Source of the DNA: Patescibacteria group bacterium
GTDB lineage: Bacteria > Patescibacteriota > Microgenomatia > Levybacterales > UBA12049
Direction of reading: 5' to 3'
Assembly (NCBI GenBank): GCA_041743715.1
Contig: JBGTMH010000032.1
Coordinates: 131 to 64,130, forward strand
DNA length: 64,000 nucleotides
Shown: positions 24,968 to 49,297 of the stretch, piece by piece
Layout of the letters: each line of letters starts with the position of its first letter
Position numbering within the stretch: position 1 is the stretch's first letter
Position numbers and translations under genes: made by a program
The notes under the pieces: model-generated
The model's database searches: none
What the model saw: only the letters and a program-made list of their open reading frames with translations
Told to the model about the DNA's origin: nothing

Positions 24968-24988
24968 TTAGCGATACTGGTATATGGG

Positions 24989-26286: not shown

Positions 26287-26395
26287 CTCCCATTCAGTGG
26301 TACGATTGTGATAAAATACACTTTGTATAAACCGTTTAGTGTTTAGTATAAAACTGGGTACAAATCCCTAGAACCTATTCCTAAACCCTAATTTC

Positions 26396-26445: not shown

Positions 26446-26450
26446 ATATA

Positions 26451-26776: not shown

Positions 26777-26782
26777 CTAAGG

Positions 26783-26869
26783 GGTGGGATGCGAGAGTGG
26801 TTGAATCGGATCGTCTCGAAAACGATTGTAGCTGTAAAGTTACCCCGGGTTCGAATCCCGGTCCCACCG
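26783..26869 (+). tRNA. tRNA-Ser (anticodon CGA)
   Basis: GGTGGGA TG CGA GAGTGGTTGAA TCG G ATCGT CTCGAAA ACGAT, then a long variable arm, CCGGG TTCGAAT CCCGG and TCCCACC G. Confidence 0.85.
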
Positions 26870-26878
26870 CCCCAACCC

Positions 26879-26952
26879 GCTCCCGTAGCTCAGTTGGATA
26901 GAGCACCAGATTCCGGATCTGGGGGTCGGAGGTTCAAATCCTCTCGGGAGTA
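26879..26952 (+). tRNA. tRNA-Arg (anticodon CCG)
   Basis: GCTCCCG TA GCTCAGTTGGATAGAGC A CCAGA TTCCGGA TCTGG GGGTC GGAGG TTCAAAT CCTCT CGGGAGT A. Confidence 0.85.
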
Positions 26953-26957
26953 CTTTT

Positions 26958-27797: not shown

Positions 27798-27915
27798 AAT
27801 TCTTATCCTCCCTTAAAATACTGCAATTGTCAAGAGAATACGTTATAATTACCACATGATTATAGGAAAAACTCATGCAATGCACTTGATATTTTCCTTA
27901 TAAAATACTCTCAAA

Positions 27916-28002
27916 GGAGGGATCGCATAGTGGTCGAGTGCGCGGGCTTGGAAAGCTCGTATGGCCGTAAGGTCATCGGGGGTTCGAATCCCCCTCTCTC
28001 CG
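27916..28002 (+). tRNA. tRNA-Ser (anticodon GGA)
   Basis: GGAGGGA TC GCA TAGTGGTCGAG TGC G CGGGC TTGGAAA GCTCG, then a long variable arm, GGGGG TTCGAAT CCCCC and TCTCTCC G. Confidence 0.85.
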
Positions 28003-28072
28003 CACATCAATCGTGGCTGTCGCGTTAACGTGAGCGCTTGACATCCTCTGCTAAATCCCTCACACTGAAATT

Positions 28073-33203: not shown

Positions 33204-34532
33204 TTACGCAGCAAACCTGAATCCTCTTCCTTTAATCGTTTGCAGATGCACGGGATGATTGGCATCTTCTTCAATTTTACGACGGACTCGAAAGACGAGT
33301 TGATCAACAGCTTGATCTGTGATACCTGCTGTTGATTTAACTCCTTGCCAGACGATAGTAATCAGTTCGTCACGCTCCACAATTCGCGCCGATTGCTGCA
33401 ACAAATAACGAAGCAATCTGAATTCTGACGAGGTTAGTTGATCTGAGAGCACAACTGCACCTTTGCGAATTGTATTGGTATTTTCATCATAGACAATTTT
33501 CTGAATACTCTTCGCCGCTTCTTGGTACTCTGCGGTGATGAACTGGGCAAACAAAGGAATTTGAATTTTGTTCCCATGAATTAAGCCAACCTTTTCCAAA
33601 TAATCATTGACATCACGGTCAGCAAATGTACCCTCGAGCAAATCTGATTGCTCAGCAGGCGAGAGCGAAAACCAAATCTCATTTAATGCTCCTCTTACAA
33701 TCGTTTGTGTCAACAAAAATTCGCTGAGGTTTCCCGGTGTACTACCATGAGCAAGCAGTGTTTCAACACAAAATTTTGTTACCTTTCCGTGACCGCCGGT
33801 CAATGTCAGTACTTCTTTGAGAATCTGTGCAGACAGCTTCTTCCCAGTTAGCTTTTCAATAAACGAAAGTCGGAATGTACTAAATACCTCCTCATGCATG
33901 GCTACATACACGATATGACCTGCTACAAATTCGTAATATTCTGCAAGCAATGTCGGTTCAAGCATATTCTCCAAAGGTCTATTAACTGAAAAAACAATCG
34001 AGAAACGGTATTTTGCTCTATTGCGAAGAACACGAAGATTGGTAAAAAATTGACTTGTAACAGTTGGGACATACTCCTCAAAACGATCAAACAAAAACAC
34101 AATTGTTATTTTTTTCTCAAGAGCCATATAGTCAACTGCTTCTTTAAAGCCCTGAAATAACACCAACTCATCATTGAATTGGAGATGTTCCTGGAATTTA
34201 CCAACTACTACTTTATGTTCTTCAGTCATACCTCGTTCTCGGAGTGACTCGGTGAGATTAAGGAATAAATATTTCATCACATCAAAGAGATCACGATTGC
34301 GGATCTCTGAAAAATCAATCGCAACAAAATGTGTCTTTTTTTCGGCTGTACCGAGATGTTTTTGTCGGATATGTTTGTTATAGGCAAAAAGCCCAAGGAG
34401 TGTCGACCGACTCACGCCTGGGATGCCGACAACCTGACATGACCTGCCATCTTTTATATAGCTGACTATCTTTGCCATTTCCTCAAATCTCGTAGTATCA
34501 GGAAATTCTGCTTCAAAATGTTCGTCGTGCAT
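33204..34532 (-). CDS. AAA-like NTPase domain fused to C-terminal OmpR/PhoB-type winged-helix DNA-binding domain
   Basis: 442 aa. The P-loop-like VVGIPGVSRSTLL has Arg where Lys is expected, and the Walker-B-like segment is ITIVFLFDRFEE. The C-terminus LTSSEFRLLRYLL...VDQLVFRVRRKIE...IKGRGFRF matches the Trans_reg_C pattern. Confidence 0.7.
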   Translation of the reverse strand: MHDEHFEAEFPDTTRFEEMAKIVSYIKDGRSCQVVGIPGVSRSTLLGLFAYNKHIRQKHLGTAEKKTHFVAIDFSEIRNRDLFDVMKYLFLNLTESLRERGMTEEHKVVVGKFQEHLQFNDELVLFQGFKEAVDYMALEKKITIVFLFDRFEEYVPTVTSQFFTNLRVLRNRAKYRFSIVFSVNRPLENMLEPTLLAEYYEFVAGHIVYVAMHEEVFSTFRLSFIEKLTGKKLSAQILKEVLTLTGGHGKVTKFCVETLLAHGSTPGNLSEFLLTQTIVRGALNEIWFSLSPAEQSDLLEGTFADRDVNDYLEKVGLIHGNKIQIPLFAQFITAEYQEAAKSIQKIVYDENTNTIRKGAVVLSDQLTSSEFRLLRYLLQQSARIVERDELITIVWQGVKSTAGITDQAVDQLVFRVRRKIEEDANHPVHLQTIKGRGFRFAA

Positions 34533-34654
34533 AAACCTATTCTACCGACTTACTTATCAATTTACAATTTTTAATTTTGCTCTTGCTTTTCTTCTTACAA
34601 CTTTGTTATTGTGAATATATGGACTATCTAGCACTTACCCTACCAGGTGGAAAG

Positions 34655-34939
34655 ATGATTGACGCACCGGCTAGCGTTCCCACAGGAGGAACTGACGTAC
34701 TCGCAAAAGTGATCGGCAACGCAATCAACATCATGCTTATTATTGCTGTATTCGCAGCACTCGTATTTCTCATCCTTGGTGGCATCCAATGGATTAGATC
34801 AGGAGGAGATAAAAGCCAAATCGCCTCAGCCCGTTCAAAAATAACCATGGCAATTGTCGGTCTGGCCATCGCGCTCTTTGCTTTCCTTATCGTTAACCTC
34901 TTCGGTGTCTTCTTCAATGTCAAACTTTTTGGAAGATAA
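34655..34939 (+). CDS. T4SS pilin-like protein (VirB2/TrbC-like), copy 1, no obvious signal peptide
   Basis: Two-TM hairpin with the conserved loop ILGGIQWIRSGGDKSQIASARSKI. The ATG at 34655 follows AGGTGG. The track ORF starts at the TTG at 34577, and the ATG at 34619 is an alternative start. Confidence 0.55.
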   Translation: MIDAPASVPTGGTDVLAKVIGNAINIMLIIAVFAALVFLILGGIQWIRSGGDKSQIASARSKITMAIVGLAIALFAFLIVNLFGVFFNVKLFGR

Positions 34940-34991
34940 AGTTGATCTATTGACAAAGGTCAAAAAATTGTTTTATCATGGATACAGAGAT

Positions 34992-35393
34992 ATGAAAAAG
35001 ATTTTAGGAACACTCATAACAGCAGGCGCGTACTTAGGATTTGCAGTTTCAGCATTTGCGACAGGAGGTCAAGTTAATCCTTGTCCAGGTGCCGGTCAAT
35101 TTAGTAAACTGTGTAACTTAAATGCAAATAATATCGGTCCCCTCGTTGGAGCTGCAGTAACTTTCATTTTAATAATCGCAGTTTTGATCGCTCTCTTCTT
35201 CCTCATTTTTGGTGGTATCCGATGGATTACATCAGGTGGAGACAAAGCAAAGGTAGAAAGCGCCCGTGGAACAATCATTGCCGCAATCATTGGTTTGGTT
35301 ATCGCATTCTTAGCATTCTTTATCCTATCACTAGCACTGAGCTTCTTCGGACTCAGCTTGAACAACCTGCAATTGCCTACAGCTATTAAGTAA
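34992..35393 (+). CDS. T4SS pilin-like protein (VirB2/TrbC-like), copy 2
   Basis: Signal peptide MKKILGTLITAGAYLGFAVSAFA, then two TM helices flanking IFGGIRWITSGGDKAKVESARGTI. This is the pattern of the monoderm/CPR T4SS pilin family. Confidence 0.7.
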   Translation: MKKILGTLITAGAYLGFAVSAFATGGQVNPCPGAGQFSKLCNLNANNIGPLVGAAVTFILIIAVLIALFFLIFGGIRWITSGGDKAKVESARGTIIAAIIGLVIAFLAFFILSLALSFFGLSLNNLQLPTAIK

Positions 35394-35571: not shown

Positions 35572-35955
35572 ATGAAAAAACTTATTGCTTTAACCCTTCT
35601 TGTTGTCACCTTACTTGTTGCTGTCCCGCCTGCGTATGCACAAGGCAAAGAATGGGGAGATTGTGTCGATCCCCAAACAAAAATTGCTACTTTGAGATGC
35701 ATTCCAATTGTTTTCGGCAATATCGTTAGTGCCGCACTAGCGTTTGTCGGAGCAGTCTCGGTCATTCTTATCGTATACGCAGGTATCAGATTTATTACAT
35801 CAGGAGGAGATCCCAAACAAGTCGCTGCAGCTCAAAAAATTATTACTTACGCCCTCATTGGACTCGTCATTGTGCTCTGTTCGTTTGCAATTATCTACTT
35901 TATCAGTTACGCGACTGGTGTCAAGTGTATCACCAAATTTGGCTTTGGCTGCTGA
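35572..35955 (+). CDS. T4SS pilin-like protein (VirB2/TrbC-like), copy 3
   Basis: Signal peptide MKKLIALTLLVVTLLVAVPPAYA, then two TM helices flanking VYAGIRFITSGGDPKQVAAAQKII. The C-terminus is Cys-containing. Confidence 0.7.
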   Translation: MKKLIALTLLVVTLLVAVPPAYAQGKEWGDCVDPQTKIATLRCIPIVFGNIVSAALAFVGAVSVILIVYAGIRFITSGGDPKQVAAAQKIITYALIGLVIVLCSFAIIYFISYATGVKCITKFGFGC

Positions 35956-36174: not shown

Positions 36175-37575
36175 ATGGATCAACACCCAATACCACAAGA
36201 CGTTACCGGATTTCAATTTAAATTGATCGGCACCATGACAGTCAAACAATTTGGCTATGTCGCAGCAGGCGCGATCATGGCGGTTGCACTCTACTATTTG
36301 CCTCTTCCTCCCCTTTGGCTCCTTTTCAAACTTATATTCGTTCCGATTTTTGGCGCAAGTGGCGTAGTCATCGCTTTTGTACCCATCGAAGGCCGTCCGA
36401 TAGATGTTATGACAACAAACTTTGCGAAAGCGCTTTTTTCTCCCAATCAATATATTTACCGCCGTGCCGGAAGAAAATTAAGTTTTTCATCTGTCGCAGC
36501 TTTTAAGCCGCCAGCTGTATCTAAAACAGATCCAAAGAAAATTGAACATATAACACCTGCAAAAAAACAAATGAATCTGAAAGAAGAACAACTCCGTGCG
36601 TTTCTCCAAAGCTCCCAAGGGGTAGGCAAAACTGAGGCTGACAAAAAAGAGGCAGCCTTTCTCAAAACACTTACCATTACTGCACCTCAACTTGCGGCAC
36701 CAACAATTGCCAAGCCGTCCCCTACTAAAATTATCCCCACTGTTCACCTAACAGTTAGCACTCCTCAAGCCAAACCAGCTCTTATAGCTAAACCCATAAG
36801 TCCTCTTCAACCCAAACCTACAGCACCTGTCTTACCACTTCAAATGCCACCGCCTGCACCGGTCATACAATCGACCAGCCCAACACCAACACCAACACCA
36901 ACACCAGAAACGCCGGACATACTCGCAAAAAAAGAAAGTCAACTAGAGCAAGAACTGATACAAGCCAAGCAGGAAGAAACAAAACCTCTTGCTCCTTCTG
37001 CGCATGCAGCAGCTCATCAAAAAGTTGAAGAACTCGATAAACAAATTCAAGAAATACATTCCCAAAAGCAAAAACTTGAAGAAGAACTCACCCGTTTACA
37101 AACTCAGTTGACTTTACAAAAAAATCCAACTCCTCCCACAGTTCCTCAATCACCAGCACCAGTTCAAGTTCTAGCCCCATCAAAACCTGCCATCCCCATA
37201 CAAGATCCAAAATTTGTTAAGATCGTACAAAAAACAGTAACGAGCCAGACAGATATTCCGCAGGTTTCCGATTCGCCAAACGTCGTAGTAGGTATTGTAA
37301 AAGATCCGCGAGGTAATGTCCTATCAAATATCTTAGTTGAGGTAAAAGATAAAGACGGTAATCCTGTCAGAGCGTTTAAGACCAATCCTCTTGGCCAATT
37401 TGCCTCTGCAACACCGCTTAGTCCCGGCGTTTATACCATGGAGCTTGAGGATCCCAAAAAGATGCATAACTTCGATGTCATCCAAATTACAGCCAACAAC
37501 CAAATTATGAGACCGATAGAAATCATCTCACATGATGCAAGAGAAGCCCTACGACAACAGCTATTTGCAAATTAA
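36175..37575 (+). CDS. PrgI/VirB3-like membrane protein with Pro-rich linker, coiled coil and C-terminal carboxypeptidase-regulatory-like domain
   Basis: 466 aa. The N-terminus FQFKLIGTMTVKQFGYVAAGAIMAVALYYLP plus a second TM fits the PrgI-family pattern. The C-terminus VVGIVKDPRGNVLSNILVEVKDKDGNPV..TNPLGQF resembles a CarboxypepD_reg-type beta-sandwich. Confidence 0.5.
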   Translation: MDQHPIPQDVTGFQFKLIGTMTVKQFGYVAAGAIMAVALYYLPLPPLWLLFKLIFVPIFGASGVVIAFVPIEGRPIDVMTTNFAKALFSPNQYIYRRAGRKLSFSSVAAFKPPAVSKTDPKKIEHITPAKKQMNLKEEQLRAFLQSSQGVGKTEADKKEAAFLKTLTITAPQLAAPTIAKPSPTKIIPTVHLTVSTPQAKPALIAKPISPLQPKPTAPVLPLQMPPPAPVIQSTSPTPTPTPTPETPDILAKKESQLEQELIQAKQEETKPLAPSAHAAAHQKVEELDKQIQEIHSQKQKLEEELTRLQTQLTLQKNPTPPTVPQSPAPVQVLAPSKPAIPIQDPKFVKIVQKTVTSQTDIPQVSDSPNVVVGIVKDPRGNVLSNILVEVKDKDGNPVRAFKTNPLGQFASATPLSPGVYTMELEDPKKMHNFDVIQITANNQIMRPIEIISHDAREALRQQLFAN

Positions 37576-37578: not shown

Positions 37579-38244
37579 ATGTCTGCCCAAAAAATACATG
37601 CAACCACACAAAAATTTACTGAGATTGTCGATTTCGCAGATGATATTGTCATCTTAGAAGGCGGCAACGCTTGTATGATTATTGAAATCACAGCAAGTAA
37701 TTTCGCTTTGCTCTCAAAACGGGAACAAGATAGCCGTATTTTCTCATACGCAGGACTGCTTAATTCACTGTCGTTTCCTATCCAAATTTTGATCCGTAAT
37801 CGGCGGATGGATATTTCCCAATATATAAAAGAGCTTGAAGGAATAATTACAACCACAAAAAACCCACAGCTTGCAACCTATGTCGAATACTACGCCGCAT
37901 TTGTCAAAGAAATGGTTACCGTTAACGTCGTATTGAATAAATCATTCTATATCGTTGTCCCCTTTTCTTCACTTGAGTTGGGGGTTACCGGTGCTACGCA
38001 AGGTCAACAAAAAGGACAAGTCAAAGCTGAAGCATTTACTCAGTCGGCTCGAAAAGCACTTCAAAACAAAGCTAATTCCCTTTTAGGTCAGTTGCAAAAG
38101 TTTGCAACCTCAGCGAAAGTACTAGAAAAAGAGGATTTGATTAAGCTTTTTTATGAAATTTACAATGAAGAAACAGAAGTTGATATTGGTCAGATGCAAG
38201 AAGGCGCAGGTGCTACAATGATTAAAGGAGAGACGAAACAATGA
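37579..38244 (+). CDS. Hypothetical T4SS-associated protein (weakly resembles a VirB4/TraC N-terminal region)
   Basis: 221-aa soluble ORF. The stretch IVDFADDIVILEGGNACMIIEITASNFALLSKREQD..F..LLNSLSFPIQILIR resembles the start of VirB4-type proteins by eye. Its stop overlaps the VirB4 start (ATGA). Confidence 0.4.
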   Translation: MSAQKIHATTQKFTEIVDFADDIVILEGGNACMIIEITASNFALLSKREQDSRIFSYAGLLNSLSFPIQILIRNRRMDISQYIKELEGIITTTKNPQLATYVEYYAAFVKEMVTVNVVLNKSFYIVVPFSSLELGVTGATQGQQKGQVKAEAFTQSARKALQNKANSLLGQLQKFATSAKVLEKEDLIKLFYEIYNEETEVDIGQMQEGAGATMIKGETKQ

Positions 38245-40313
38245 ATTTACCATTCGGAAAAAAACCACCAGCACCAGCGCCAGCTGCACCGAGTGCAGCA
38301 CCAGCCAAAACGGCACAACCTGCCAAAGGAGTACCCGGCAAAGGTCCCGTTGCAAAAGGAAAGGCAAAAGCACCCCCGCCACCTCCTGTTTCTAAAAATA
38401 TACAGAATCTTGAAAAAGGACTATCCTCTGTCGTGGATATTATCGCTCCTTCATCTGTAGAGGTTGACTTTCGCTATATCCGTGTCGGTGATTTCTTTTA
38501 TACGACACTCTTCATTGCAGGATACCCACGTTACGTTTCTTCTGCCTGGCTTGAAGCTATTATTGATTATGATCACACGATGGACATCGCTATGTTCTGT
38601 TATCCAACTTCATCATCCGACGTACTCGCTGATCTAAAACGAAAAATTGGGGAAATGCAGGCAACGCTCGCATCAGACGCAGAGCAAGGAAAAGTAGCCG
38701 ATCCAACAGTAGAAGCAGCACTTGAGGATGCGCTTGGTTTGCAAGAAGAGTTAGCTAAAGGTGTTGAACGATTCTTTCAATTTGGCTTTTATATTACCGT
38801 TTCTGATGCTGATTTGGTCAAATTGCAAGACACTATTAAAAACCTTCAGACAGCTCTTGGTTCTTTGCTTCTGACAGGAAAACTTGCAACCCTTCAAATG
38901 GAAGAAGGATTTAAATCCACGCTTCCTCTGGGACAAGACCGACTGTACATTACCCGCAATATGGATACTTCATCGCTTGCCTCCACATTTCCTTTCACCT
39001 CCGCAATTCTGACGCAAAACAAAGGTGTTATGTATGGCGTCAATCAACAGAATGGCTCACTTATTATTTTTGACAGATTCTCTTTGGAAAATGCCAATGA
39101 GGTCGTGCTTGGAAAATCCGGTGCGGGAAAATCATATACGATTAAGCTCGAGATTATGCGTCAGTTTATGCTTGGCTCTGAGGTTATTGTGATTGATCCT
39201 GATGGAGAGTATGAAACCATGACGCCAGCCCTTGGTGGAGAAGTTGTTGAATTTTCATCCGGCTCACAAATCAAAATAAATCCGTTTGACCTTTCAGATG
39301 TGTATGAAGAAGGTGAGAATGAGTTGGGCCTAAAAATCATGTCTTTGCATGGATTACTCAAGATCATAACTGGACAACTTGACGCTGAGCACGATGCTAT
39401 TTTGGACCGTGCCTTGATTGCGACCTATCTATCAAAAGGCATAACCACAGATCCTGCTACCCAAAAAAAATTACCCCCTCTCATGGAAGATTTGTATAAA
39501 ACACTCCTTGGTATGGAAGATAAGACCGCACGGGAAATTGCTTACACGCTTGAAAAGTTTATTAAAGGAAGTGCTTCAGGTATTTTCAACCAGCAATCAA
39601 ATTTTGAGATCAATAATCCCTTGACTGTTTTTTCTATCCGCAACCTTGAAGAAACGCTTCGTCCGGTTGCTATGCATATTATTCTTGACTTTGTCTGGAC
39701 AAAAGTAAAACGGTCACTGAAAAAACGCACATTAATTCTTGATGAGGGGTGGTATATGATGAAATATCAAGATTCCGCCTCATTTGTGTACTCAATTGCC
39801 AAACGTGCGAGAAAATACTACTTAGGGTTGACTACTGCCACGCAGGATGTGGAAGATTTTCTTAAAAATGAATACGGGAAGGCCGTTCTTACCAATTCGT
39901 CCATTCAAGTGCTACTCAAACAAGGAACTGCTGAAGTAGATATGATAGCCGAAACATTTTATCTTTCAGAGGGAGAAAAAGCACTTCTTTTATCTGCAGA
40001 TGTCGGCGAAGGATTATTCTTTGCCGGACAAAATCATGTGGCCATGAAAGTTTTTGCCGCGCCATTTGAACATGAACTTATTACCTCAAACCCAATGGAA
40101 CTTCTCAAACGCCAGCAGGAAAAAGAACGAGCCAATCAAGCAGAAGCCAACTCAACCGGTGAGACACAAACAGCCGCCGCGATGACGAACCCTACTGCCT
40201 CACCCACTCCAGCTGCTCCAACACCATCTGTTGAGAATACGGATATCTCCACTCCGACACCATCACCAAGTACACCTCCTGCTCCCCCAACACCGACTGG
40301 AACACCTACATAA
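38241..40313 (+). CDS. virB4: VirB4/TraE-type T4SS ATPase
   Basis: 690 aa. Walker A is LGKSGAGKSYT and Walker B is RTLILDEGWYMM. Also present are the N-domain motif APSSVEVDF.YIRVGD.FYTTLFIAGYPRYV and TTATQDVEDF. Both termini have Pro/Ala/Thr-rich low-complexity tails. Confidence 0.85.
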   Translation: MNLPFGKKPPAPAPAAPSAAPAKTAQPAKGVPGKGPVAKGKAKAPPPPPVSKNIQNLEKGLSSVVDIIAPSSVEVDFRYIRVGDFFYTTLFIAGYPRYVSSAWLEAIIDYDHTMDIAMFCYPTSSSDVLADLKRKIGEMQATLASDAEQGKVADPTVEAALEDALGLQEELAKGVERFFQFGFYITVSDADLVKLQDTIKNLQTALGSLLLTGKLATLQMEEGFKSTLPLGQDRLYITRNMDTSSLASTFPFTSAILTQNKGVMYGVNQQNGSLIIFDRFSLENANEVVLGKSGAGKSYTIKLEIMRQFMLGSEVIVIDPDGEYETMTPALGGEVVEFSSGSQIKINPFDLSDVYEEGENELGLKIMSLHGLLKIITGQLDAEHDAILDRALIATYLSKGITTDPATQKKLPPLMEDLYKTLLGMEDKTAREIAYTLEKFIKGSASGIFNQQSNFEINNPLTVFSIRNLEETLRPVAMHIILDFVWTKVKRSLKKRTLILDEGWYMMKYQDSASFVYSIAKRARKYYLGLTTATQDVEDFLKNEYGKAVLTNSSIQVLLKQGTAEVDMIAETFYLSEGEKALLLSADVGEGLFFAGQNHVAMKVFAAPFEHELITSNPMELLKRQQEKERANQAEANSTGETQTAAAMTNPTASPTPAAPTPSVENTDISTPTPSPSTPPAPPTPTGTPT

Positions 40314-40360: not shown

Positions 40361-41530
40361 ATGGACGATGAAAATGAACAAGGCGGCGGTGGCGATGATG
40401 GCGGTGGGGGTGCCGGAGGTAGCTCTGGTGATAAAAAACACGGCGGGCATTTTGACATAAGCAACCCGCTAAAAAATGCAGCAAGACGCGGGATGCCTAA
40501 CCCTGCAAATATGCGGGCAAACAATCCCTTATCAGGACGCGGAGGTCCAAAAGGTACGAAGAGAAGTATCGTAAGCGTAGGACGAGTAACCGCTCAAGCC
40601 TCAGCAGCCGCATTTAGAGGTATACTAGCTTTCTTTGCAACTCCCCCTGGCATAGTTACACTCGTATTAATTGCTGCTACTATATTTATTTTCTATATGC
40701 TTTTTGCAGACGAGGTAGCAAATCAACCACCTACGGAACCAGACCCTGCTGTTAGAGTACGTACCACCTGCCCCCCTCAAGCTGTTGTGGGACAAGAGTT
40801 TACATGTGCGATTTCAGCTACCTACCCGGGAATCGCAAAGGATTTCATTATCATTGACACCTATTTCGATGGACTTGAATACGTCTCTTCAATTCCAGAA
40901 GGAAAACATGACGCTACCGGTCGTAAGGTTACCTGGAGCATGAGCGATGCTGGTATACTTCTCACAAGCCCGCTTATCTTCGGAGTCACTGTCACCTTCC
41001 GAGTGCTCGGATCCGCACCTGATAAGCTCTACCAAAAAATACAAGCATACCCTGTCGAAGGATCTGTTTCAGCAGGAGCAGCAGCAAATTATGTACCAGC
41101 CAACAGAGACAACTGTGGAGGCAAAGCAAATCTCGGCAAAAACCCTCTCGGAAATTTTGGTGATCCGGCTTGCGACTATACCAACGACGAACTCTATACA
41201 TTTCTTAAATTAGAAGATCCACTCTATGCAGAACTATGGTATCTGACAATTGTTGTTGGTGAAAGCTCGTATAATCCCAACGCGTGGGCGGCACCAGTGG
41301 GCCAACAAGCAAGTCTGGATGCTGGCGGTGCATGGGGGAATTTTCAAATGGGAAGTAGTACACCACCTGGTACCGCGCCCCCTGCTCCTGGCAAAAATGG
41401 AGAATTCGATCGCGGAGATGTCAACTGGAAAATGCAAGCAAAAAGCGCAATTCAATATAATAGAAATCAGAATTGTAGTTTTCGGTATTGGGCAACTGCC
41501 AGGTCAAAATGGGGTGCTTACAAATGTTAA
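40361..41530 (+). CDS. Membrane-anchored protein with C-terminal lytic-transglycosylase-like (SLT) motif, VirB1-like candidate
   Basis: 389 aa with a Gly/Asp-rich N-terminus and one TM (GIVTLVLIAATIFIFYMLF). The C-terminus VVGESSYNPNAWA...GAWGNFQMG resembles the SLT catalytic E-S...GxxQ pattern. Confidence 0.5.
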   Translation: MDDENEQGGGGDDGGGGAGGSSGDKKHGGHFDISNPLKNAARRGMPNPANMRANNPLSGRGGPKGTKRSIVSVGRVTAQASAAAFRGILAFFATPPGIVTLVLIAATIFIFYMLFADEVANQPPTEPDPAVRVRTTCPPQAVVGQEFTCAISATYPGIAKDFIIIDTYFDGLEYVSSIPEGKHDATGRKVTWSMSDAGILLTSPLIFGVTVTFRVLGSAPDKLYQKIQAYPVEGSVSAGAAANYVPANRDNCGGKANLGKNPLGNFGDPACDYTNDELYTFLKLEDPLYAELWYLTIVVGESSYNPNAWAAPVGQQASLDAGGAWGNFQMGSSTPPGTAPPAPGKNGEFDRGDVNWKMQAKSAIQYNRNQNCSFRYWATARSKWGAYKC

Positions 41531-41555: not shown

Positions 41556-42113
41556 ATGAAACAAAAGCAAAAAGAAAATATTTTTATCATAGCGCTAGCG
41601 GGACTCCTTCTTATCATCGTTTTCTGGATTGCGATCCTCGCTTTTTCCGCAGAACCTACTTTGCAGCCGGAACAACAAATTCAACCAACAATTACAATTA
41701 CACTTACTCCAACTCCCACACATGAAACAACGTCTCCCCCCGTCAAATATGATACCGCGGCACAGGATAAGCTCTTAGATAAATTTAATAACAGACAGGC
41801 ACTCTCTTCAAATGATACATTTGCCAAGGCTAAGATACTTGCATCACTTCCGCCGGGTCAACAATCAGGAATTGTCTATAAAACCTCAAATATAAGCATC
41901 GAGTACGTTCATTCTCCAGACCTTTTCCAAATAGAAATTCTAACAACTGACATCGCTCAGGCCAAGGCAGCAGCAAATGTATGGTTCCGGGCACAAGGAA
42001 TGAGCCAACGGGGAATTTGTGACCTTCCGCTACTATTCTATTTAAATTGGGAAATTGCAAATCAAATGCGGGGACAAAACATCCAGTTTAGCCCGCTTGG
42101 GAACGGTTGTTAA
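41556..42113 (+). CDS. Bitopic protein, paralog family P, copy 1
   Basis: The ATG at 41556 follows AAGGAAAGGA. It has an N-terminal TM, a T/P linker and a ~115-aa domain ending GICDLPLLFYLNWEIA...FSPLGNGC. The track ORF is extended upstream. Confidence 0.6.
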   Translation: MKQKQKENIFIIALAGLLLIIVFWIAILAFSAEPTLQPEQQIQPTITITLTPTPTHETTSPPVKYDTAAQDKLLDKFNNRQALSSNDTFAKAKILASLPPGQQSGIVYKTSNISIEYVHSPDLFQIEILTTDIAQAKAAANVWFRAQGMSQRGICDLPLLFYLNWEIANQMRGQNIQFSPLGNGC

Positions 42114-42114
42114 T

Positions 42115-42687
42115 ATGAAACTTTACGATTACTTATTACAAAATAAAAAGCTCGTCATTCTTGTCACACTGTTTTTCATACTTTTGCCTCTTGGTTTTAG
42201 CAGAATACCCTACCCTACTAATAACTTCATTGAAAAAACTTCCCTTTCCCCTACTGTCTCTCAATTACAAAATACCACCCAAGAGACAACACCTACGATG
42301 CTTATACCGACAACACAGATAGTAGATGATGATCCACATAGTAAACTTCTTGACTTAATACAAAATAGACGACAACTTTCAGATGCTGACAGTACTGCAA
42401 AAAAGAATCTACTTCTACAATTACCAAACGGTGAAAGTTCTGGAAATATATATCTTTCTTCTACCATCAGAGTTGAGTATGTTCGAGGGCCCGATTTATT
42501 CCAAGTAGAAATATTAACCACAAATGTTGCGCTTGCAAAAGTCGAAGCTGCGGCCTGGTTTCAACAAAATGGTATCAGCCAAGAGGGTATTTGCAATCTT
42601 CCGGTAAGTTTTTATCTTAACTGGGATATTGCACAAAAACTCAGAAATAGTGATACTGTATTTAACCCCTTACCAAATGACTGTTAA
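42115..42687 (+). CDS. Bitopic protein, paralog family P, copy 2
   Basis: The start is 1 nt after the P1 stop (TAAtATG). The architecture is the same, and the domain ends GICNLPVSFYLNWDIA...FNPLPNDC. Confidence 0.6.
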   Translation: MKLYDYLLQNKKLVILVTLFFILLPLGFSRIPYPTNNFIEKTSLSPTVSQLQNTTQETTPTMLIPTTQIVDDDPHSKLLDLIQNRRQLSDADSTAKKNLLLQLPNGESSGNIYLSSTIRVEYVRGPDLFQVEILTTNVALAKVEAAAWFQQNGISQEGICNLPVSFYLNWDIAQKLRNSDTVFNPLPNDC

Positions 42688-42688
42688 T

Positions 42689-43210
42689 ATGAAAACATTA
42701 TTAAAAAAATTGCGATTTGATTCTTGGGCACTGTCGTTTTTAGCATTTATCATCGTTTTTCCACTCATTTTACTCGCGGCAAAAAACACACTTAATGTTA
42801 CTCCCGCCCAACAAACACATTTTCAGGAAACAACCAGTTCTGAAACAAACAATCCTCCTTCCGGAGGAACTCTTGAAAAGGTGGAGAACAGACAACCACT
42901 TTCCGCCACTGATGCAAAGGTCAAAGCAAAACTCCTTGCGCTTCTTCCTGACGGACAAAAGGCTGGTATTATTCACCAATCACCAAATATCAGAGTAGAA
43001 TATATTCTTTCTCTTGATCAATTTAATGTGGAAATTGTTAACACCAATATTGCAAATGCAAAAAAAGAAGGCAACGCATGGTTTCTAGAACAAGGCCTGA
43101 GCCAGAAAGGATTATGTGATCTTCCTCTTCGTTTTTACCTCAATAATGCCGTTTTCGAACAAATGCCTGATATACAAGACACATTCAACCCCTTGCCTGA
43201 TGGCTGTTAA
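42689..43210 (+). CDS. Bitopic protein, paralog family P, copy 3
   Basis: The start is 1 nt after the P2 stop, with the same TGTTAATATGAAA junction. The domain ends GLCDLPLRFYLNNAV...FNPLPDGC. Confidence 0.6.
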   Translation: MKTLLKKLRFDSWALSFLAFIIVFPLILLAAKNTLNVTPAQQTHFQETTSSETNNPPSGGTLEKVENRQPLSATDAKVKAKLLALLPDGQKAGIIHQSPNIRVEYILSLDQFNVEIVNTNIANAKKEGNAWFLEQGLSQKGLCDLPLRFYLNNAVFEQMPDIQDTFNPLPDGC

Positions 43211-43230: not shown

Positions 43231-43866
43231 ATGAATAAACTACTAAAAAGTGCCATTACTTTTTCGTTTATTGTTGGCTTATTCCTCATTACCCCATCAT
43301 TTACCATTGCCCAAGCCCCAAATCCCGAAGCACCTAAAAAGGATGGTGAATGTGTGGTAATAAACATTCCTGGCGCAATAATAAAGTCTACTCCTCCTCC
43401 AGGTTGTGAAAGTGTGGGAGGTGGCGGAGCACCTAAGGTCGTAGAATTAGCAAGACAGCAGGTTGGTAAGCCATATGTTTGGGGAGCACCTTCAGGTAGA
43501 AATTGGGCAGCATTAGATCCTGAAGCAGGAAAAACACCAGGATCGTTTGATTGTTCAGGGTTAGTCGGCTGGGCGTGGTATTGGGGTACTGGTGGTAATG
43601 TTAGTATGGCTGGACAAACATCAGCAGACTGGGGTAGTGGTAAATTTGAGAAACATCAACCGGGAGAACCTATGATACCTGGAGATCTGGTCTATTACTC
43701 GACTCCTAGTAACATTCATCATGTAGCTCTCTTTGCAGGGACGGGAAACTGTGGAACAAGTGATTGTATAATCGAAACCTATACAAGTAGTAAACCTGCG
43801 AGAGAAATTAGCTTAGCTCAAAAGGGAGGAACAGTGGTAGGGTTCTTACGACCTACTACTCAATAA
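43231..43866 (+). CDS. Secreted NlpC/P60-family cell-wall peptidase
   Basis: 211 aa with a signal peptide ending TIAQA. The catalytic Cys context is FDCSGLVGWAWYW and the His context is IHHVALFAG. An N-terminal module ECVVINIPGAIIKSTPPPGC is present. Confidence 0.8.
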   Translation: MNKLLKSAITFSFIVGLFLITPSFTIAQAPNPEAPKKDGECVVINIPGAIIKSTPPPGCESVGGGGAPKVVELARQQVGKPYVWGAPSGRNWAALDPEAGKTPGSFDCSGLVGWAWYWGTGGNVSMAGQTSADWGSGKFEKHQPGEPMIPGDLVYYSTPSNIHHVALFAGTGNCGTSDCIIETYTSSKPAREISLAQKGGTVVGFLRPTTQ

Positions 43867-43869: not shown

Positions 43870-44397
43870 ATGGAAGAAAATATTAACATTAATCAGAATA
43901 TACAAAGTAACAAATATCTCAATTTTATTAAGAAAAATAAATACATTATTTTTGCATTTTCAATGCTCATTATTCTCATTAGTGTCTTTATTTCACTCAT
44001 GGTTGTTTCCTCAAATAGTTCATCGAAGATCGCTGTAACTCCCACTCCTACGCGGGATGGAACAATAACACCCCAACCTACCGTAACTTTTCCCTTAGTT
44101 CAACCCACAAAAGATACCAAGTCACAAGAACAAAAAATCATTGAAAACCAAACGAAACAACAACTTGATCAGCGAATCCAAATATCATACACAATAGAAA
44201 AAGTAAAAATCTATGAAGGAAATTGGGCAATCATGGTAGTGAATAACCCTACTACTGACCCCGCAAGGGTCGTAATTAAAAAAGAAAAAGGTAGTTGGAA
44301 CGTAATACTTGGCCCAGGAACATATTTTGATGATGCTGATTTACAAGCAATTGGAGCACCGTTGAACTTAATTAACGAAATCAACGGAATTCTTTAA
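43870..44397 (+). CDS. Hypothetical bitopic protein (paralog pair Q, copy 1)
   Basis: 175 aa with one TM and a T/P linker. The C-terminal domain is ..KIYEGNWAIMVVNNP..ARVVIKKEKGSWNVILGPGTYFDDADLQAIGAP. Confidence 0.5.
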   Translation: MEENININQNIQSNKYLNFIKKNKYIIFAFSMLIILISVFISLMVVSSNSSSKIAVTPTPTRDGTITPQPTVTFPLVQPTKDTKSQEQKIIENQTKQQLDQRIQISYTIEKVKIYEGNWAIMVVNNPTTDPARVVIKKEKGSWNVILGPGTYFDDADLQAIGAPLNLINEINGIL

Positions 44398-44457: not shown

Positions 44458-45048
44458 ATGATTGAAGGTGGAGAATCGTTTCCTAGTGGACATCATCCCT
44501 CTGAAATAATTAATAACACAACTGAAACTACTCCCGTTGTCACACCAATAAATAGGGGTGGACCTTTGAGAAGAAGATTGATTGGTGGAACAATGGCGGC
44601 AGCCACAGTAATCAGTGCACTAGGGATGTTTGGAATAAATAGAGGAATGGATTCAGAGCAATCGGATAAGAAACCCCTAGCAATTTCACAAATAACTGAT
44701 ATTCGTACTCCTCTTTTAGTATCATCATCCACCGAGTCACCACCACCAGTTGAGTCCCCAGAAATTAAACGCATTAAAGAACAAATTAAAAATAAAGTAA
44801 GTACAAGTGATAATGCTGAGGTTAGGGTTGAAGCACCTTATGATTTTTCTGATGTAGATATTTATAATGACTCTTGGGCAATAGCTCAAATAACTGGAAC
44901 CAACATTGACAACGCAAACATAGTCGTCAAGAAAGAGAAAAATGGACAATGGAAAATTGTAGAAGGACCCTTTACTTTTTCTGATGATGAACTATTACGA
45001 GCAAAAGGTGTACCTGAAGATGTAATAGAAGCTAGCGGTAAATTCTAA
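44458..45048 (+). CDS. Hypothetical bitopic protein (paralog pair Q, copy 2)
   Basis: 196 aa with one TM. The C-terminal domain ..DIYNDSWAIAQITG..ANIVVKKEKNGQWKIVEGPFTFSDDELLRAKGVP aligns with the preceding ORF. Confidence 0.5.
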   Translation: MIEGGESFPSGHHPSEIINNTTETTPVVTPINRGGPLRRRLIGGTMAAATVISALGMFGINRGMDSEQSDKKPLAISQITDIRTPLLVSSSTESPPPVESPEIKRIKEQIKNKVSTSDNAEVRVEAPYDFSDVDIYNDSWAIAQITGTNIDNANIVVKKEKNGQWKIVEGPFTFSDDELLRAKGVPEDVIEASGKF

Positions 45049-45184: not shown

Positions 45185-45205
45185 TCTGTGTATTATGAAA
45201 AGAGT

Positions 45206-45940
45206 ATGAATATACAATTAGAACGCTACATTATATATTTCATTGTTATGGGAATATTTCTCTTAACTCCTTTATTTCACAACGCTCAAGCCCAAAACAC
45301 AGGCGACGAGTGTGTTGTAATAGAAATCCCCGGCTCCTTAATTAAATCTTCTCCTCCCCCAGGATGTAACGCTGTAGGGCAAGATGGTATCACCTATCCT
45401 ACCAATATGACTTGTAAGCCTGATGGCTACTGTCAACTTCAACACCCTCAGCCTCCGAACGGTTCGTATCGAGCACTCAATTGTCAAAGTAAATATTTTG
45501 GTCATAAAGATCTTGTCGGTGTCCTTTACACAGTCTCGGAACGATGGAAGCAAAAATATCCAAGTGGTTTTCTTAGAATTGGCGATCTCAATGGTGCTGG
45601 TCATAAAACTCATAATAAAGGCTATGCTGTTGATCTGGATGCAACGACAAACGGTACCGATTGTGTTGCTGATTATGTAGCAGGTGGATTAGCACGCAAT
45701 TGCGGGGGGGGGAATTATAACCGGGAAGCAACGGTTGAATTAGGGAAAATGTTTGTTGATACGAATTCTATCCGACAAATTCTCTATATGGACCAATCAG
45801 TCAACAGTGCTGTTATGGAATATGCACGACAGACAAATAAATCACCAGGTATGAATATGTTTCCTGTTGCCCGCCATGACAACCACTTTCACGTAGATGT
45901 AAGAATTGAAAATCTTCCTTTCTGGGAACCTGGTTGTTAA
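45206..45940 (+). CDS. Secreted LAS-superfamily zinc murein peptidase (M15/M74-like)
   Basis: The ATG at 45206 gives a signal peptide ending NAQAQ. GHKTHNKGYAVDLD and RHDNHFHVDVRI fit the H-x6-D...HxH zinc site of LAS peptidases. An N-terminal module ECVVIEIPGSLIKSSPPPGC is present. Confidence 0.6.
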   Translation: MNIQLERYIIYFIVMGIFLLTPLFHNAQAQNTGDECVVIEIPGSLIKSSPPPGCNAVGQDGITYPTNMTCKPDGYCQLQHPQPPNGSYRALNCQSKYFGHKDLVGVLYTVSERWKQKYPSGFLRIGDLNGAGHKTHNKGYAVDLDATTNGTDCVADYVAGGLARNCGGGNYNREATVELGKMFVDTNSIRQILYMDQSVNSAVMEYARQTNKSPGMNMFPVARHDNHFHVDVRIENLPFWEPGC

Positions 45941-45955: not shown

Positions 45956-46597
45956 ATGAATACATTTGTTACTAACATTATCGCTTTTGCCTTAAGATAC
46001 AAATTATATTTTTTTCTTTCAATACCATTGGTATTGATACTTTTTTCAGTAATTCTTATTTCTTTTTTTCAATCCCCCGTTTCGCAAACACCTCGCACTT
46101 CTGTTATTCCTACAGTTGTATCTCATACGAATTCCCCTCCTATCCCAACTACAAAACCTACAGGATTAAATAGAACCATAGAACCAGTTGAATCTGTCGA
46201 AGGAGAAGGTATTGAAGACAGATCAGGGCTTTTGAAAAAAGAGCAACTTTCGGACGGAACAACACAATATACTTATACTTCTCCCAATCCTGAACGACCA
46301 AATATTATTATAGCAAGAGACGAACAAGATATCTTATTTGAAAGAGCTGTCAGTCTACCTGATTATCCTGTTAAAATTTCAGAATATACACAACCATATG
46401 GTCAGCCCGAAAGAATCATTCGAGGTTCTTTGTTTTATGGTTCAAGCGCTGAAACTTATATTTATGCTCAGCGAGGATTTGCTTTTATCGCAAATCCTGA
46501 AACCACCTTAGTACTGGAACAGCATCTTTTTTCTCCTGTATCTGTTAACGAGTACATCAAAAAATACGGCGACGATATACCATCAAATACTCGATAA
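45956..46597 (+). CDS. Hypothetical bitopic protein
   Basis: 213-aa ORF with one N-terminal TM, a P/T-rich linker and a ~130-aa C-terminal domain. No family recognised. Confidence 0.5.
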   Translation: MNTFVTNIIAFALRYKLYFFLSIPLVLILFSVILISFFQSPVSQTPRTSVIPTVVSHTNSPPIPTTKPTGLNRTIEPVESVEGEGIEDRSGLLKKEQLSDGTTQYTYTSPNPERPNIIIARDEQDILFERAVSLPDYPVKISEYTQPYGQPERIIRGSLFYGSSAETYIYAQRGFAFIANPETTLVLEQHLFSPVSVNEYIKKYGDDIPSNTR

Positions 46598-46600: not shown

Positions 46601-47710
46601 TTACCCCTGTACTCGAATAGGCATAATCATATGGAGGAAGGATGTGTCTCCTTGGATCTTGAATATTCCTGGATTGAGTGGGCCGATCATATCGAATGCT
46701 AAATCTTTCTCTTCAACATTTCCTAAGACATCAAGCAAATACCTCGCATTAAAAGCAATTTCATTTTCTTCACCTGTTAGCTTTGCATCTACACGTACGG
46801 TATTTTCACCGATAGCAGATGATCCAGATGATACGGTTATGTTATCTGCGGCTAAGGCAAATTTGATAATATTTGCTGAATCTCTTGCAAAGACTGAGCA
46901 AATCTTTACCGCCTTGAGTAATTCTTCTCTATCAAATGACACGCTGACTGAAAAATCAGAGGGGATAATTTTTGCGAAATTTGGAAATTCTGCTTCTATC
47001 AGTCTCCCAATTAGAACCGTATCTTCTTGTTCAAAAAGTACTTGATTATTTTGCTGAGAAACGTAGATCGAAATGTCTTTATTCTCATCCTTCAAAGAAA
47101 GCAATTCCCGGAAAACTCTGGCTGGAATGATATAAGATGCACTTTCTCCAGCTCTATTCTCTGTTGTTTTATAATGTCTTAAAGACAAACGATAACCATC
47201 AGTTGCGACAAGTAAAAATCCTTCAGGCTCTTTGCGTACCAAAACACCCGAAAGCGCTGGCCGCGCTGTATCTTGACTTGCTGCAAAGACGACAGATGAA
47301 AATTCATGTTTGATGTCTTTTCCTGACAAAACTGCGAGCTTTTCTCCCCTTTCTTCATACAACTTGGGGAATTCTTCACTATTTATAGTTTGAAAAATAC
47401 TTTTTGTTCGTTTCGTGTGGACTTCAAGCGTTTTCTCTTTTGTCTCAAGTGTCAGCATATCATCGGTCAGAGAATTTATCAGTTCAGTAAAAAGTTTTGC
47501 TGGAACAGTGATTTCACCGTGTTCTTCAATTTTTGCTGGACAAAAAATCTCTATTCCTATTTCCAAATCTGTACTGCTGAGCTTTATTTTCCCTTCAACT
47601 GATTCAATCAAAAAATTCTGTAGTACTGGTAATTGGCTTTTGGGAGAGACTGCTCTGTTGAGAAACGAAAGTTTACTTACGAGGTTTGGGGTTAATATCT
47701 GTACTTTCAT
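46601..47710 (-). CDS. dnaN: DNA polymerase III beta sliding clamp
   Basis: 369 aa. MKVQILTPNLVSKLSFLNRAVSPKSQLPVLQNFLIE.., ..ATDGYRLS.. and C-terminal ..LHMIMPIRV are canonical DnaN. It lies immediately downstream of dnaA. Confidence 0.9.
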   Translation of the reverse strand: MKVQILTPNLVSKLSFLNRAVSPKSQLPVLQNFLIESVEGKIKLSSTDLEIGIEIFCPAKIEEHGEITVPAKLFTELINSLTDDMLTLETKEKTLEVHTKRTKSIFQTINSEEFPKLYEERGEKLAVLSGKDIKHEFSSVVFAASQDTARPALSGVLVRKEPEGFLLVATDGYRLSLRHYKTTENRAGESASYIIPARVFRELLSLKDENKDISIYVSQQNNQVLFEQEDTVLIGRLIEAEFPNFAKIIPSDFSVSVSFDREELLKAVKICSVFARDSANIIKFALAADNITVSSGSSAIGENTVRVDAKLTGEENEIAFNARYLLDVLGNVEEKDLAFDMIGPLNPGIFKIQGDTSFLHMIMPIRVQG

Positions 47711-47929: not shown

Positions 47930-49297
47930 TTATTCAAGAAATGCACGTTTTATCCCCAGAATATCCTCAGAGACTTTTTCCTTATTTTCCACAAGAAATC
48001 GAATTTTATCCACACCATGCATGATCGTTGTATGATCACGTCCTCCTAAGAGATTACCAATCTCAACATGCGTAATTCCCATTTCAACATAGAGGAGATA
48101 CATACAGACATGCCGGGCCTTAACAAGTCCTGCATCCCGTTTTGGTCCTTTCAACTGAGTTGTTTTAATGTGATAAAAATCACAAACTGCTTTAATCACA
48201 TCATCAGTATGCAGATGTCCCCTTTTTTCTTCAACCATAGACCCAAGTGCTTTTTCAGCCAACTCCAAAGTAATACTTGAATCATTTGCTGTTATTTGAG
48301 AAATAATCCTCAAAAGTAAACCCTCTAAGCTTCTGGTGTCCTCGGCATTTTCTGCCATAAAGAGCGCAACATCAATTGGCAATTCTTGGCCGAATTTTTC
48401 AGCCTTCTTTCGGACAATAGCAGTTTTCAGTTCCAAATCGGGTTTTCCTATATCAACTGTTAATCCGCCCGCAAACCGGGAAGACAAACGTTTCTCTAGT
48501 TTTTTAATCTCTTGCGGTGGACGGTCTGAAGTTAAACATATCTGTGATCCATTATCTATCAAAATATTAAAGGTATGAAATAGCTCTTCTTGCACTTTTT
48601 CTTTCCCTTCAATAAATTGAATGTCATCGATGAGGAGTACAAAGGCTGAACGAAATCTTTTTTTCATTCTCGCCGTGTCGTTGTTGCGTATCGCTTCAAC
48701 GACTTCATTGGTAAATTCCTCACTGGTGATGTAGATTATTTTTTTCTCAGGTTGTTGTTGATAGGCGCTGTTTGCAATGGCGTGCATTAAATGTGTTTTC
48801 CCCACACCGACCGGTCCATACAGAAAAAGTGGATTGTATGACTGACCAATTTTTTCAGCGACACGTTGTGCTGAAACAAATGCAAGCTGATTGGTACTTG
48901 AGACAGCAAAATTGCTAAAAGTAAAATCAGAACGGACACGGGTTAAATGTCCGATAAACGGCTGAATTGGTTTTTGATTTGGTTCTCCATTCGCTGGCGG
49001 GTCAAAAAGTGGCGTGGTTTTTTCCGGTTCTTTCGGCTGGAGTGGGTTACTTTTTACAATAAAGACAATATCGATTTCGTGTCCGGTTTGCTTTTGCAAT
49101 AATTCTTTTATCTGTCCTGAAAAACGTTTTTGTAAAAGATCAACAATCATTGAAGAAGGCGCACCTATTGTTGCTATATCGTCTTCCAGGGACAACAGAA
49201 AGGTTGGATTGAGAAAGGTTCCAAAATTGCCTTTAGAAACAGTTAATTTTAATTCTGTCAGTATCGTAGTCCATAATAGTATGAGGTTTGTCTCCAT
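47930..49297 (-). CDS. dnaA: Chromosomal replication initiator DnaA
   Basis: 455 aa. Walker A is LYGPVGVGKTHL. Also present are LLIDDIQF, SDRPP, and the C-terminal DNA-binding helix region VCMYL...IGNLLGGRDHTTIMHG. Confidence 0.95.
   Translation of the reverse strand: METNLILLWTTILTELKLTVSKGNFGTFLNPTFLLSLEDDIATIGAPSSMIVDLLQKRFSGQIKELLQKQTGHEIDIVFIVKSNPLQPKEPEKTTPLFDPPANGEPNQKPIQPFIGHLTRVRSDFTFSNFAVSSTNQLAFVSAQRVAEKIGQSYNPLFLYGPVGVGKTHLMHAIANSAYQQQPEKKIIYITSEEFTNEVVEAIRNNDTARMKKRFRSAFVLLIDDIQFIEGKEKVQEELFHTFNILIDNGSQICLTSDRPPQEIKKLEKRLSSRFAGGLTVDIGKPDLELKTAIVRKKAEKFGQELPIDVALFMAENAEDTRSLEGLLLRIISQITANDSSITLELAEKALGSMVEEKRGHLHTDDVIKAVCDFYHIKTTQLKGPKRDAGLVKARHVCMYLLYVEMGITHVEIGNLLGGRDHTTIMHGVDKIRFLVENKEKVSEDILGIKRAFLE

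Follow-up and report, generated by a model that had tools for sequence, protein, structure and literature searches.

In the 64,000-nucleotide stretch of Patescibacteria group bacterium DNA analysed here (contig JBGTMH010000032.1; its full length is referred to below as the window), three consecutive genes, P1, P2 and P3, encode small membrane-anchored proteins of an undescribed and unannotated family that very likely represents a dedicated component of that type IV secretion system (T4SS) in whose gene cluster it is embedded. The family is a new component of a known kind of machine and not a new kind of system. It is not a detectable VirB8 homolog, and its nature is best read as that of a VirB8 analogue by position and possibly also by function. 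By analogy to the better-studied systems, we propose, with a probability of roughly 0.55, that P1-P3 are dedicated extracytoplasmic parts of a chromosomal monoderm-type (MPF-FATA-like) T4SS, where they would constitute a wall-zone scaffold doing a VirB8-like job with a fold not detectably akin to that of VirB8. The assignment to the T4SS follows from the occurrence of the family in a single syntenic slot, tight gene coupling, purifying selection, and a predicted extracytoplasmic location. The VirB8-like job, in turn, is proposed because the family fills the slot that PrgL and TraH occupy after the VirB4 and VirB1-like genes.

The gene-neighborhood evidence is as follows. In the window, P1-P3 are preceded by genes for a VirB4-like ATPase (38241-40313, + strand; NCBIfam CD1110 family, E=4.6e-114) and a lysozyme/SLT-like membrane protein comparable to VirB1/PrgK (40361-41530, +; 389 aa). 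A preliminary description of this DNA had recognized both neighbors and had suggested the co-occurrence of the family with VirB4 of the candidate phyla radiation (CPR) as a check. We recovered 15 further loci (L001-L011 and L013-L016), giving 16 with the window; the genome and metagenome scans, which used a single exact peptide pattern, yielded 3 and 4 loci, respectively. The family gene or genes are found directly 3' of the SLT-like gene in 16/16 loci. Moreover, in all 13 loci with enough upstream DNA (window included), genes for VirB4, a TraC-like protein, a PrgI-like protein, and three to four T4SS_pilin proteins precede the SLT-like gene, and dnaN-dnaA lies just downstream of the T4SS cluster, such that the co-occurrence with VirB4 holds wherever it is testable and all 16 loci are consistent with it. 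This synteny is kept even for the most distant member found (26% identity). The number of copies varies, with one in six loci, two in seven distinct loci, and three in the window only. The order in pCF10 is PrgI, PrgJ (VirB4), PrgK (a membrane hydrolase), and PrgL (VirB8-like; PDB 7AED), which places P1-P3 in the PrgL slot; in Tn916, present on the same record as pCF10, the hydrolase Orf14 is likewise followed by Orf13, a VirB8-like protein of class BETA (PMC12857230). The original designation of the upstream protein as SLT-like stands by way of its orthologs, four of seven of which match Pfam SLT (best E=1.1e-5), whereas the window's own copy remains below the Pfam threshold. The aligned region shows an invariant E-S...G-A-(W/Y)-G-x-(F/Y/E)-Q-M motif, and its profile weakly matches C-type lysozymes around the catalytic Glu.

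P1 (41556-42113, +; 185 aa), P2 (42115-42687, +; 190 aa), and P3 (42689-43210, +; 173 aa, or 177 aa from an alternative in-frame ATG at 42677) show 39-45% pairwise identity (44-45% relative to P1 in a three-way alignment) and are recovered by BLASTP with E=9e-45 for P1/P2 and E=2e-36 for P2/P3, which, at the level of sequence, confirms the earlier view of them as genuine tandem paralogs. Likewise upheld is their tight coupling across a repeated junction: P1-P2 and P2-P3 are each separated by exactly 1 nt, with the ATG placed 1 nt past the preceding stop, and the 13-mer TGTTAATATGAAA spans both junctions in identical form (42108-42120 and 42682-42694, +), with two matches in the window vs 0.01 expected by chance. 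It reads TGT-TAA-T-ATG-AAA, i.e., a Cys codon, a stop, a single nucleotide, a start, and a Lys codon. While a Shine-Dalgarno (SD)-like AAAGGA is located 8 nt 5' of the P1 ATG, none is clearly seen ahead of P2 or P3 on reading the sequence. The lack of an obvious SD for P2 and P3, together with the 1-nt gaps, fits a termination-reinitiation mechanism, by which the translation of these two genes is probably coupled to that of their predecessors. In other loci, the family genes are similarly arranged with 2-nt gaps or overlaps of 1-11 nt. No terminator-like site was found on the + strand between 39852 and 46019. Among P1-P3, the proportion of synonymous differences (pS) in the ectodomain is 0.73-0.84, i.e., saturated, vs a proportion of nonsynonymous differences (pN) of 0.32-0.35; in the anchor and linker, pN rises to 0.48-0.63, approaching pS. 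The duplications are old at the DNA level, and the domain pN, being well under the saturated pS, indicates that purifying selection on the ectodomain maintains all three copies.

Each of the three proteins comprises a transmembrane (TM) anchor, a Pro/Thr/Ser/Gln-rich linker, and an ectodomain of ~118 aa, in agreement with the architecture first delineated for them. An AlphaFold2 model of P2 based on a 53-sequence alignment shows a TM helix at residues 2-28, a linker with a low predicted local distance difference test score (pLDDT) at 29-72, and a C-terminal domain with pLDDT 95-98. Across 214 family members, the mean Kyte-Doolittle hydropathy of the 19-residue TM window is 3.05, the net charge of the N-terminus has a median of +3 and is positive in 99%, and linkers run from 15 to 82 aa, with a median of 31 aa and a composition of 18.6% Pro, 15.6% Thr, 10.7% Ser, and 8% Gln; no AXA-type cleavage site is conserved across the family. 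The TM hydrophobicity, N-terminal charge, and linker composition together point to a predicted N-in/C-out signal anchor followed by a flexible stalk. When modeled separately, the domain was predicted with pLDDT 92.5 and a predicted template modeling score (pTM) of 0.84, with helices (H) at 5-14, 21-31, 69-82, 87-92, and 101-107 and strands (E) at 41-45, 49-54, 59-64, and 95-99. Its topology is hence H-H-E-E-E-H-H-E-H, with four short strands of 5-6 residues and two helices between strands 3 and 4. The C-terminal tail after the last helix is irregular, yet confidently placed (pLDDT 83-92).

The preliminary description had further drawn attention to two invariant cysteines, one of them at the extreme C-terminus. 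The residues in question are Cys155 and Cys185 in P1, Cys160 and Cys190 in P2, and Cys143 and Cys173 in P3. Both are invariant in 53/53 of the closest homologs, which have exactly two ectodomain Cys spaced 27-33 residues apart. In a wider set, 191/192 proteins have exactly two Cys within the last 125 residues, and nearly all of these 192 finish with ...G-C at, or no more than two residues from, the C-terminus. A supposed common NPLP..C ending is correct with respect to the terminal Cys, but the motif itself does not extend to P1, which ends in SPLGNGC. No Cys occurs outside the ectodomain in 49/53 members, and three exceptions have an isolated Cys in the TM helix with no lipobox context. Since the domain is predicted to be extracytoplasmic, an intramolecular disulfide is the natural reading of the pair, and this putative bond probably pins the C-terminal tail to helix 4. 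Further positions that do not vary, or hardly do, are (P2 numbering) D92, G110, Y122, F129, E132, I133, A141, K142, W148, G153, P163, and F166.

With respect to its distribution, a word-indexed search recovered 53 proteins, all with E<1e-30, whose source names are solely 'hypothetical protein' from Candidatus Levyibacteriota. A repeat of this search with a 149-sequence profile added few members, and an exhaustive hidden Markov model (HMM) search of 1.84 billion representatives recovered 621 clusters (50% identity) at E<=1e-3 and 339 at E<=1e-30. The family is accordingly of considerable size. It appears confined to one CPR lineage. Searches of Pfam, NCBIfam, and PDB sequences with P1-P3 returned TM-driven noise alone, the 53 homologs were likewise without a family match, and no published description of the family was found in the literature. 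Two of the recovered loci come from records labelled 'uncultured Gammaproteobacteria bacterium', namely L005 (OZ246394.1, a chromosome of 1.61 Mb) and L007 (CAZLKE010000019.1), but share with the window a 13-gene synteny of the Levyibacteriota type, with the T4SS genes followed by dnaN-dnaA; going by this gene order, their taxonomic labels look wrong. An 827-aa open reading frame (ORF) in L007 that ends in the family domain is not a fusion and was rejected as an artefact of an N-masked stretch. The search of representatives also recovered P0099 (369 aa), whose polypeptide continues beyond the family domain and its terminal Cys for another 173 aa; this extra region, which contains four further Cys and a 'GAESSF' motif, found no match in Pfam or PDB. 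Either the fusion is real or the gene was miscalled, and, as a single sequence, P0099 was not used as evidence.

The anchors further suggest a distinction of two subtypes. In the two-copy loci, the first gene encodes an anchor of the form M-(K/R)-x-(K/R)-K-(E/G)-(D/E) followed by the TM helix. In the anchor encoded by the second gene, the stretch ahead of the TM helix is longer and ends in ..NKK/DKK, and the helix itself carries F-P-(L/I) close to the outer end. P1, whose N-terminus MKQKQKEN leads into the TM helix and Pro/Thr linker, has an anchor of the first-gene type (a-type). The anchors of P2 (..QNKKLV..LLPLGF, the TM helix having a Pro close to its outer end) and P3 (..IIVFPLILL) are of the second-gene type, with P2 being a b-type and P3 a divergent b-type member. 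In the neighbor-joining (NJ) tree of the domain, all bootstraps are <=66%, and the monophyly of P1+P2+P3 is recovered in 0/500 replicates.

The size, topology, and position of P1-P3 had initially been taken to match VirB8-like assembly factors with an NTF2-like fold, even as the lack of visible sequence similarity to VirB8 was noted and a new family entertained. Of these two expectations, only the latter survives comparison. The proteins agree with VirB8-like proteins in topology and gene position, but not in fold and sequence. Pfam VirB8 or TpcC was not matched by any of the 53 members. In hhalign, the family profile aligned with a 30-sequence PrgL profile over the TM helix alone, with a probability of 16%, and probabilities were <1% throughout when it was compared to PrgD, E, F, G, H, I, K, L, M, PcfB, Orf13, and Orf14. 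Foldseek searches of the PDB with the full-length and domain-only models had a best E of 0.07 and TM-scores <=0.41, and the full-length model retrieved nothing under E=0.07 from the viral structures of BFVD. No VirB8, PrgL, TraM, or TcpC entry was among the top 50 Foldseek matches listed; the PDB holds PrgL (7AED), while TraM (4EC6), TcpC (3UB1), and VirB8 (2BHM/2CC3) are deposited according to the literature, their presence in the Foldseek library being unconfirmed. The weak top matches, namely DciA, RbfA, and the N-terminal region of a PUA-methyltransferase, were judged meaningless, with TM-scores of 0.2-0.4 and a root-mean-square deviation >10 Å.

A comparison with individual VirB8-like proteins brings out both sides of the analogy. 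Like the family, the class ALPHA proteins PrgL (pCF10) and TraH (pIP501) are bitopic N-in/C-out proteins of ~180-210 aa, are encoded directly after VirB4 and a membrane-anchored VirB1-like hydrolase, and are expected to reside in the wall region of a monoderm T4SS. Unlike them, the family carries its domain on a long disordered Pro/Thr stalk, keeps two invariant Cys, one of them C-terminal, occurs as one to three tandem paralogs with two anchor types, is without sequence or profile similarity to them, and has a short-stranded predicted fold lacking a Foldseek match to NTF2-like domains. The class GAMMA protein TraM (pIP501), TcpC (pCW3), and the class BETA protein Orf13 (Tn916) are comparable to the family in being accessory T4SS proteins, membrane-anchored and surface-accessible, with ~110-aa α + β ectodomains. 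In some systems they come in several copies or with several domains, and Orf13 is also encoded after a hydrolase gene; however, their domains are NTF2-like (PMC3548508), and the family domain did not match them. At the level of the whole cluster, the system in the window is of the same type as those described from Patescibacteria (PMC12102498) and from Southlakia epibionticum (PMC10633639), which feature arrays of VirB2-like pilins, PrgI/VirB3, TrsD-like, VirB4, and VirB1-like proteins. As in those clusters, no relaxase or coupling protein was seen in the window, and the cluster adjoins dnaA/dnaN. A 2025 survey of the Patescibacteria (Quinonero-Coronel et al.) found VirB8 homologs almost only in the class ABY1, suggested that 'a completely different protein' may fill the VirB8 role, and left genes without profile matches unannotated (PMC12102498). 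The P1-P3 family is among the latter.

With its place in the PrgL slot and a wall hydrolase encoded on either side, the family is a good candidate for the VirB8 replacement. The VirB8 homologs of Gram-positive systems form multimers, bind VirB1-like hydrolases, and are regarded as the 'cell wall complex' (PMC12857230, section 11). Under the proposed scaffold role, P1-P3 would be co-transcribed with VirB4, and reinitiation coupling of P2 and P3 would set a fixed proportion of the copies. Each protein would be anchored N-in/C-out by its single TM helix and would hold its α/β domain of ~105 residues on the flexible Pro/Thr-rich stalk in or beyond the cell wall, with the C-terminal tail stapled to helix 4 by the putative Cys-Cys disulfide. 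The copies might then assemble, probably as a heteromer of the 'a' and 'b' types, into an oligomeric scaffold of the wall-spanning part of the machine, which would position the flanking peptidoglycan hydrolases and/or support the base of the channel or pilus. In its most specific form, the proposal holds that in Levyibacteriota-type Patescibacteria the VirB8 'cell-wall complex' function was taken over by a non-homologous, stalked, and disulfide-stapled a/b hetero-oligomer, with a fold lacking any solved relative, that organizes the wall hydrolases and the base of the VirB2-like pilus, a conjecture that we advance only tentatively.

Several observations weigh against the scaffold proposal. We infer the disulfide, the coupling, the oligomerization, and the partner contacts, as well as the role itself, and the role is read wholly from genomic context. 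The long disordered stalk is unlike the situation in class ALPHA PrgL, whose domain closely follows the TM helix, and could hold the domain far from the membrane translocon. Since the copy number varies from one to three, a fixed heteromer is not universal, and the orthology of the a- and b-types is backed by the anchor sequences only, with the NJ tree of the domain leaving it unresolved. Finally, the bitopic protein encoded at the end of the cluster (45956-46597) could equally be the VirB8 analogue.

Among the alternatives, we consider it rather unlikely that P1-P3 are not channel parts and instead regulate the flanking peptidoglycan hydrolases by inhibiting, activating, or tethering them, e.g., in order to protect the cell's own wall from the SLT-like enzyme. 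The constant location of the family gene directly 3' of the lysozyme/SLT-like gene, and often 5' of a gene for an NlpC/P60, CHAP, or M74-like hydrolase, would suit such a function, but the downstream hydrolase varies or is missing while the family is constant, which speaks against a specific enzyme-inhibitor pair on that side. Known lysozyme inhibitors are small extracytoplasmic domains with a disulfide, and the family ectodomain resembles them in being small, extracytoplasmic, and probably disulfide-bonded; nevertheless, there is no sequence or fold similarity to the known inhibitor families in Pfam or the PDB, and hydrolase inhibitors of the Ivy and MliC/PliC type were discarded with no Pfam, PDB sequence, or Foldseek match. 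The GAESSF-containing region fused to the domain in P0099 might be viewed as a further link to hydrolases, but this extension matches nothing, the SLT-like profile included. In part, regulation of the hydrolases is also a sub-case of the scaffold proposal, as VirB8 homologs bind VirB1. A quite improbable reading makes P1-P3 surface recognition or adhesion modules, or minor pilus-associated subunits, displayed on a stalk in contact with the host cell or the VirB2-like pilus. The ectodomain is well conserved under strong purifying selection, many of its core and polar residues being invariant, unlike typical fast-evolving host-contact proteins, even though a long Pro/Thr-rich stalk is typical of wall-spanning display and the family comes as one to three divergent paralogs alongside three to four pilin genes. 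A hydrophobic N-terminus combined with a C-terminal disulfide-bounded region is superficially pilin-like; against this, there is no prepilin-peptidase motif (G/F...E5), the anchor and domain are separated by a disordered linker, and there is no T4SS_pilin match. Accordingly, identities as a type IV pilin or pseudopilin were rejected, the N-termini being MK(R/K)KKED... or ...NKKLV... with no G/F-E5 motif and the disordered linker spanning 15-82 aa, as was that of a VirB2-like T4SS pilin (PF18895), which is matched by none of P1-P3 or the 53 homologs, whereas three upstream genes match it.

That the family comprises extremely diverged VirB8/PrgL homologs with a remodeled NTF2-like domain is very unlikely in our estimate. 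VirB8-like proteins are notoriously divergent in sequence, the bitopic topology and operon slot are as in PrgL, and the domain's first half, with its H-H-E-E-E order, is reminiscent of how the 109-aa NTF2-like domain of TraM begins (PMC3548508). The latter consists of a pair of N-terminal helices and five antiparallel strands in a highly curved sheet around helix 1 (PMC3548508), while the predicted family domain, with its 5-6-residue strands and the two helices between strands 3 and 4, is unlike a continuous curved NTF2 sheet; to this may be added the outcome of the Foldseek and hhalign comparisons described above, with no VirB8-like entry among the matches listed, the PrgL alignment confined to the TM helix, and probabilities <1% for PrgD, PrgL, and Orf13 as single sequences. 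Least credible of all is that P1-P3 are substrates or effectors of the T4SS, or soluble Sec-secreted proteins released by cleavage of a signal peptide. The A-F-S|A that follows the hydrophobic segment of P1 is a possible signal-peptidase site, but the length and high hydrophobicity of this segment, and the lack of a conserved AXA-like motif, speak against this reading, and strict confinement to one syntenic slot and the probable coupling of translation are what machine subunits typically show, not effectors. We also ruled out, on sequence features, the sortase-substrate and signal-peptide readings. A VirB7-like or other lipoprotein was discarded on the absence of a lipobox Cys.

The scaffold proposal bears on the incomplete parts list of the patescibacterial T4SSs, which the one genetically tractable lineage requires for its epibiotic growth (PMC10633639). 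The family makes the question of what replaces VirB8 in these systems testable and is a concrete candidate for this role, with a strict linkage to the locus, a confident structural model, a Cys pair as a biochemical handle, and clear candidate partners, viz., the two hydrolases, the VirB4/PrgI-like proteins, and the pilins. If it is indeed a VirB8 analogue, a 'core' T4SS assembly factor would be replaceable by an unrelated fold, the case would be one of non-orthologous displacement within a secretion apparatus essential to cultivated relatives, and the family HMM would serve as a marker for annotating such clusters. Should it prove to regulate hydrolases or to act as a surface module, it would still be a new conserved part of a machine that is important and ill understood. 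The reach of these conclusions is limited by uncultivated hosts, the apparent restriction of the family to one CPR lineage, and the contextual nature of the evidence for the role.

The remainder of the cluster in the window begins with a gene for a large Trans_reg_C protein (33204-34532, -) with a C-terminal OmpR-type winged helix and no recognized receiver domain. This gene is conserved at the cluster's head in most of the related loci, and its product is a possible regulator of the cluster. A second large protein with a C-terminal Trans_reg_C and no recognized receiver domain is encoded at 59231-60670 (+). Three genes for VirB2-like pilins matching Pfam T4SS_pilin follow (34577-34939, 34854-35393, of which the latter is a mechanical ORF, and 35572-35955, all +), and thereafter one for a PrgI (VirB3)-like protein with a CarboxypepD_reg domain (36175-37575, +). 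A separate ORF for a TraC-like/TrsD-like N-terminal region (37579-38244, +) overlaps the VirB4 gene by 4 nt; because it is separate from VirB4 in every related locus, the split is not a pseudogene artefact. The SLT-like protein of the window, with 389 aa vs 700-961 aa in its orthologs, aligns at its C-terminus with their C-termini. Its N-terminus is Gly/Asp-rich, and in the orthologs additional N-terminal regions and Ig-like or peptidase regions are present (matches to CLIPPER and Peptidase_M15_4).

Directly after P3 is a gene for an NlpC/P60 peptidoglycan endopeptidase (43231-43866, +), a position that in other loci is taken by a CHAP or M74-like hydrolase or by none. It is followed by a second tandem pair of bitopic paralogs (43870-44397 and 44458-45048, +; 175 and 196 aa), which BLASTP aligns to each other with E=9e-15 along ~90 C-terminal aa. 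This pair has no family match and among the fetched loci is present only in L006. A gene for a weakly M74-like protein (45188-45940, +) comes next. The NlpC/P60 and M74-like proteins share an N-terminal module of ~66 aa (50% identity, E~2e-15), such that two different hydrolase domains appear, from their alignment, to be mounted on one leader or anchor module. The last gene of the cluster before dnaN codes for a conserved bitopic protein of 213 aa (45956-46597, +), with orthologs in L001, L005 (two copies), L006, L007, L008, L011, and L016 and no PDB, Pfam, or PrgL-profile similarity. Profile comparison by hhalign detected no similarity of P1-P3 to either of these other two bitopic families of the cluster. 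The chromosomal origin region then borders the T4SS cluster with dnaN (46601-47710, -) and dnaA (47930-49297, -). No DsbA-type oxidoreductase was found among the 30 neighboring ORFs scanned, the 64-kb window being too small for this absence to count, and one adjoins dnaA in L004.

Elsewhere in the window, there is a tmRNA gene (22538-22965) and a cluster of seven tRNA genes (24879-28003), five of which are for tRNA-Ser, with one called with the unusual anticodon ACT beside a GCT copy. Adjoining the tRNA cluster and a gene for a ComF-like phosphoribosyltransferase (24152-24922) is a gene (23780-24109, -) whose product matches Phage_holin_4_2 with E=5.8e-35.

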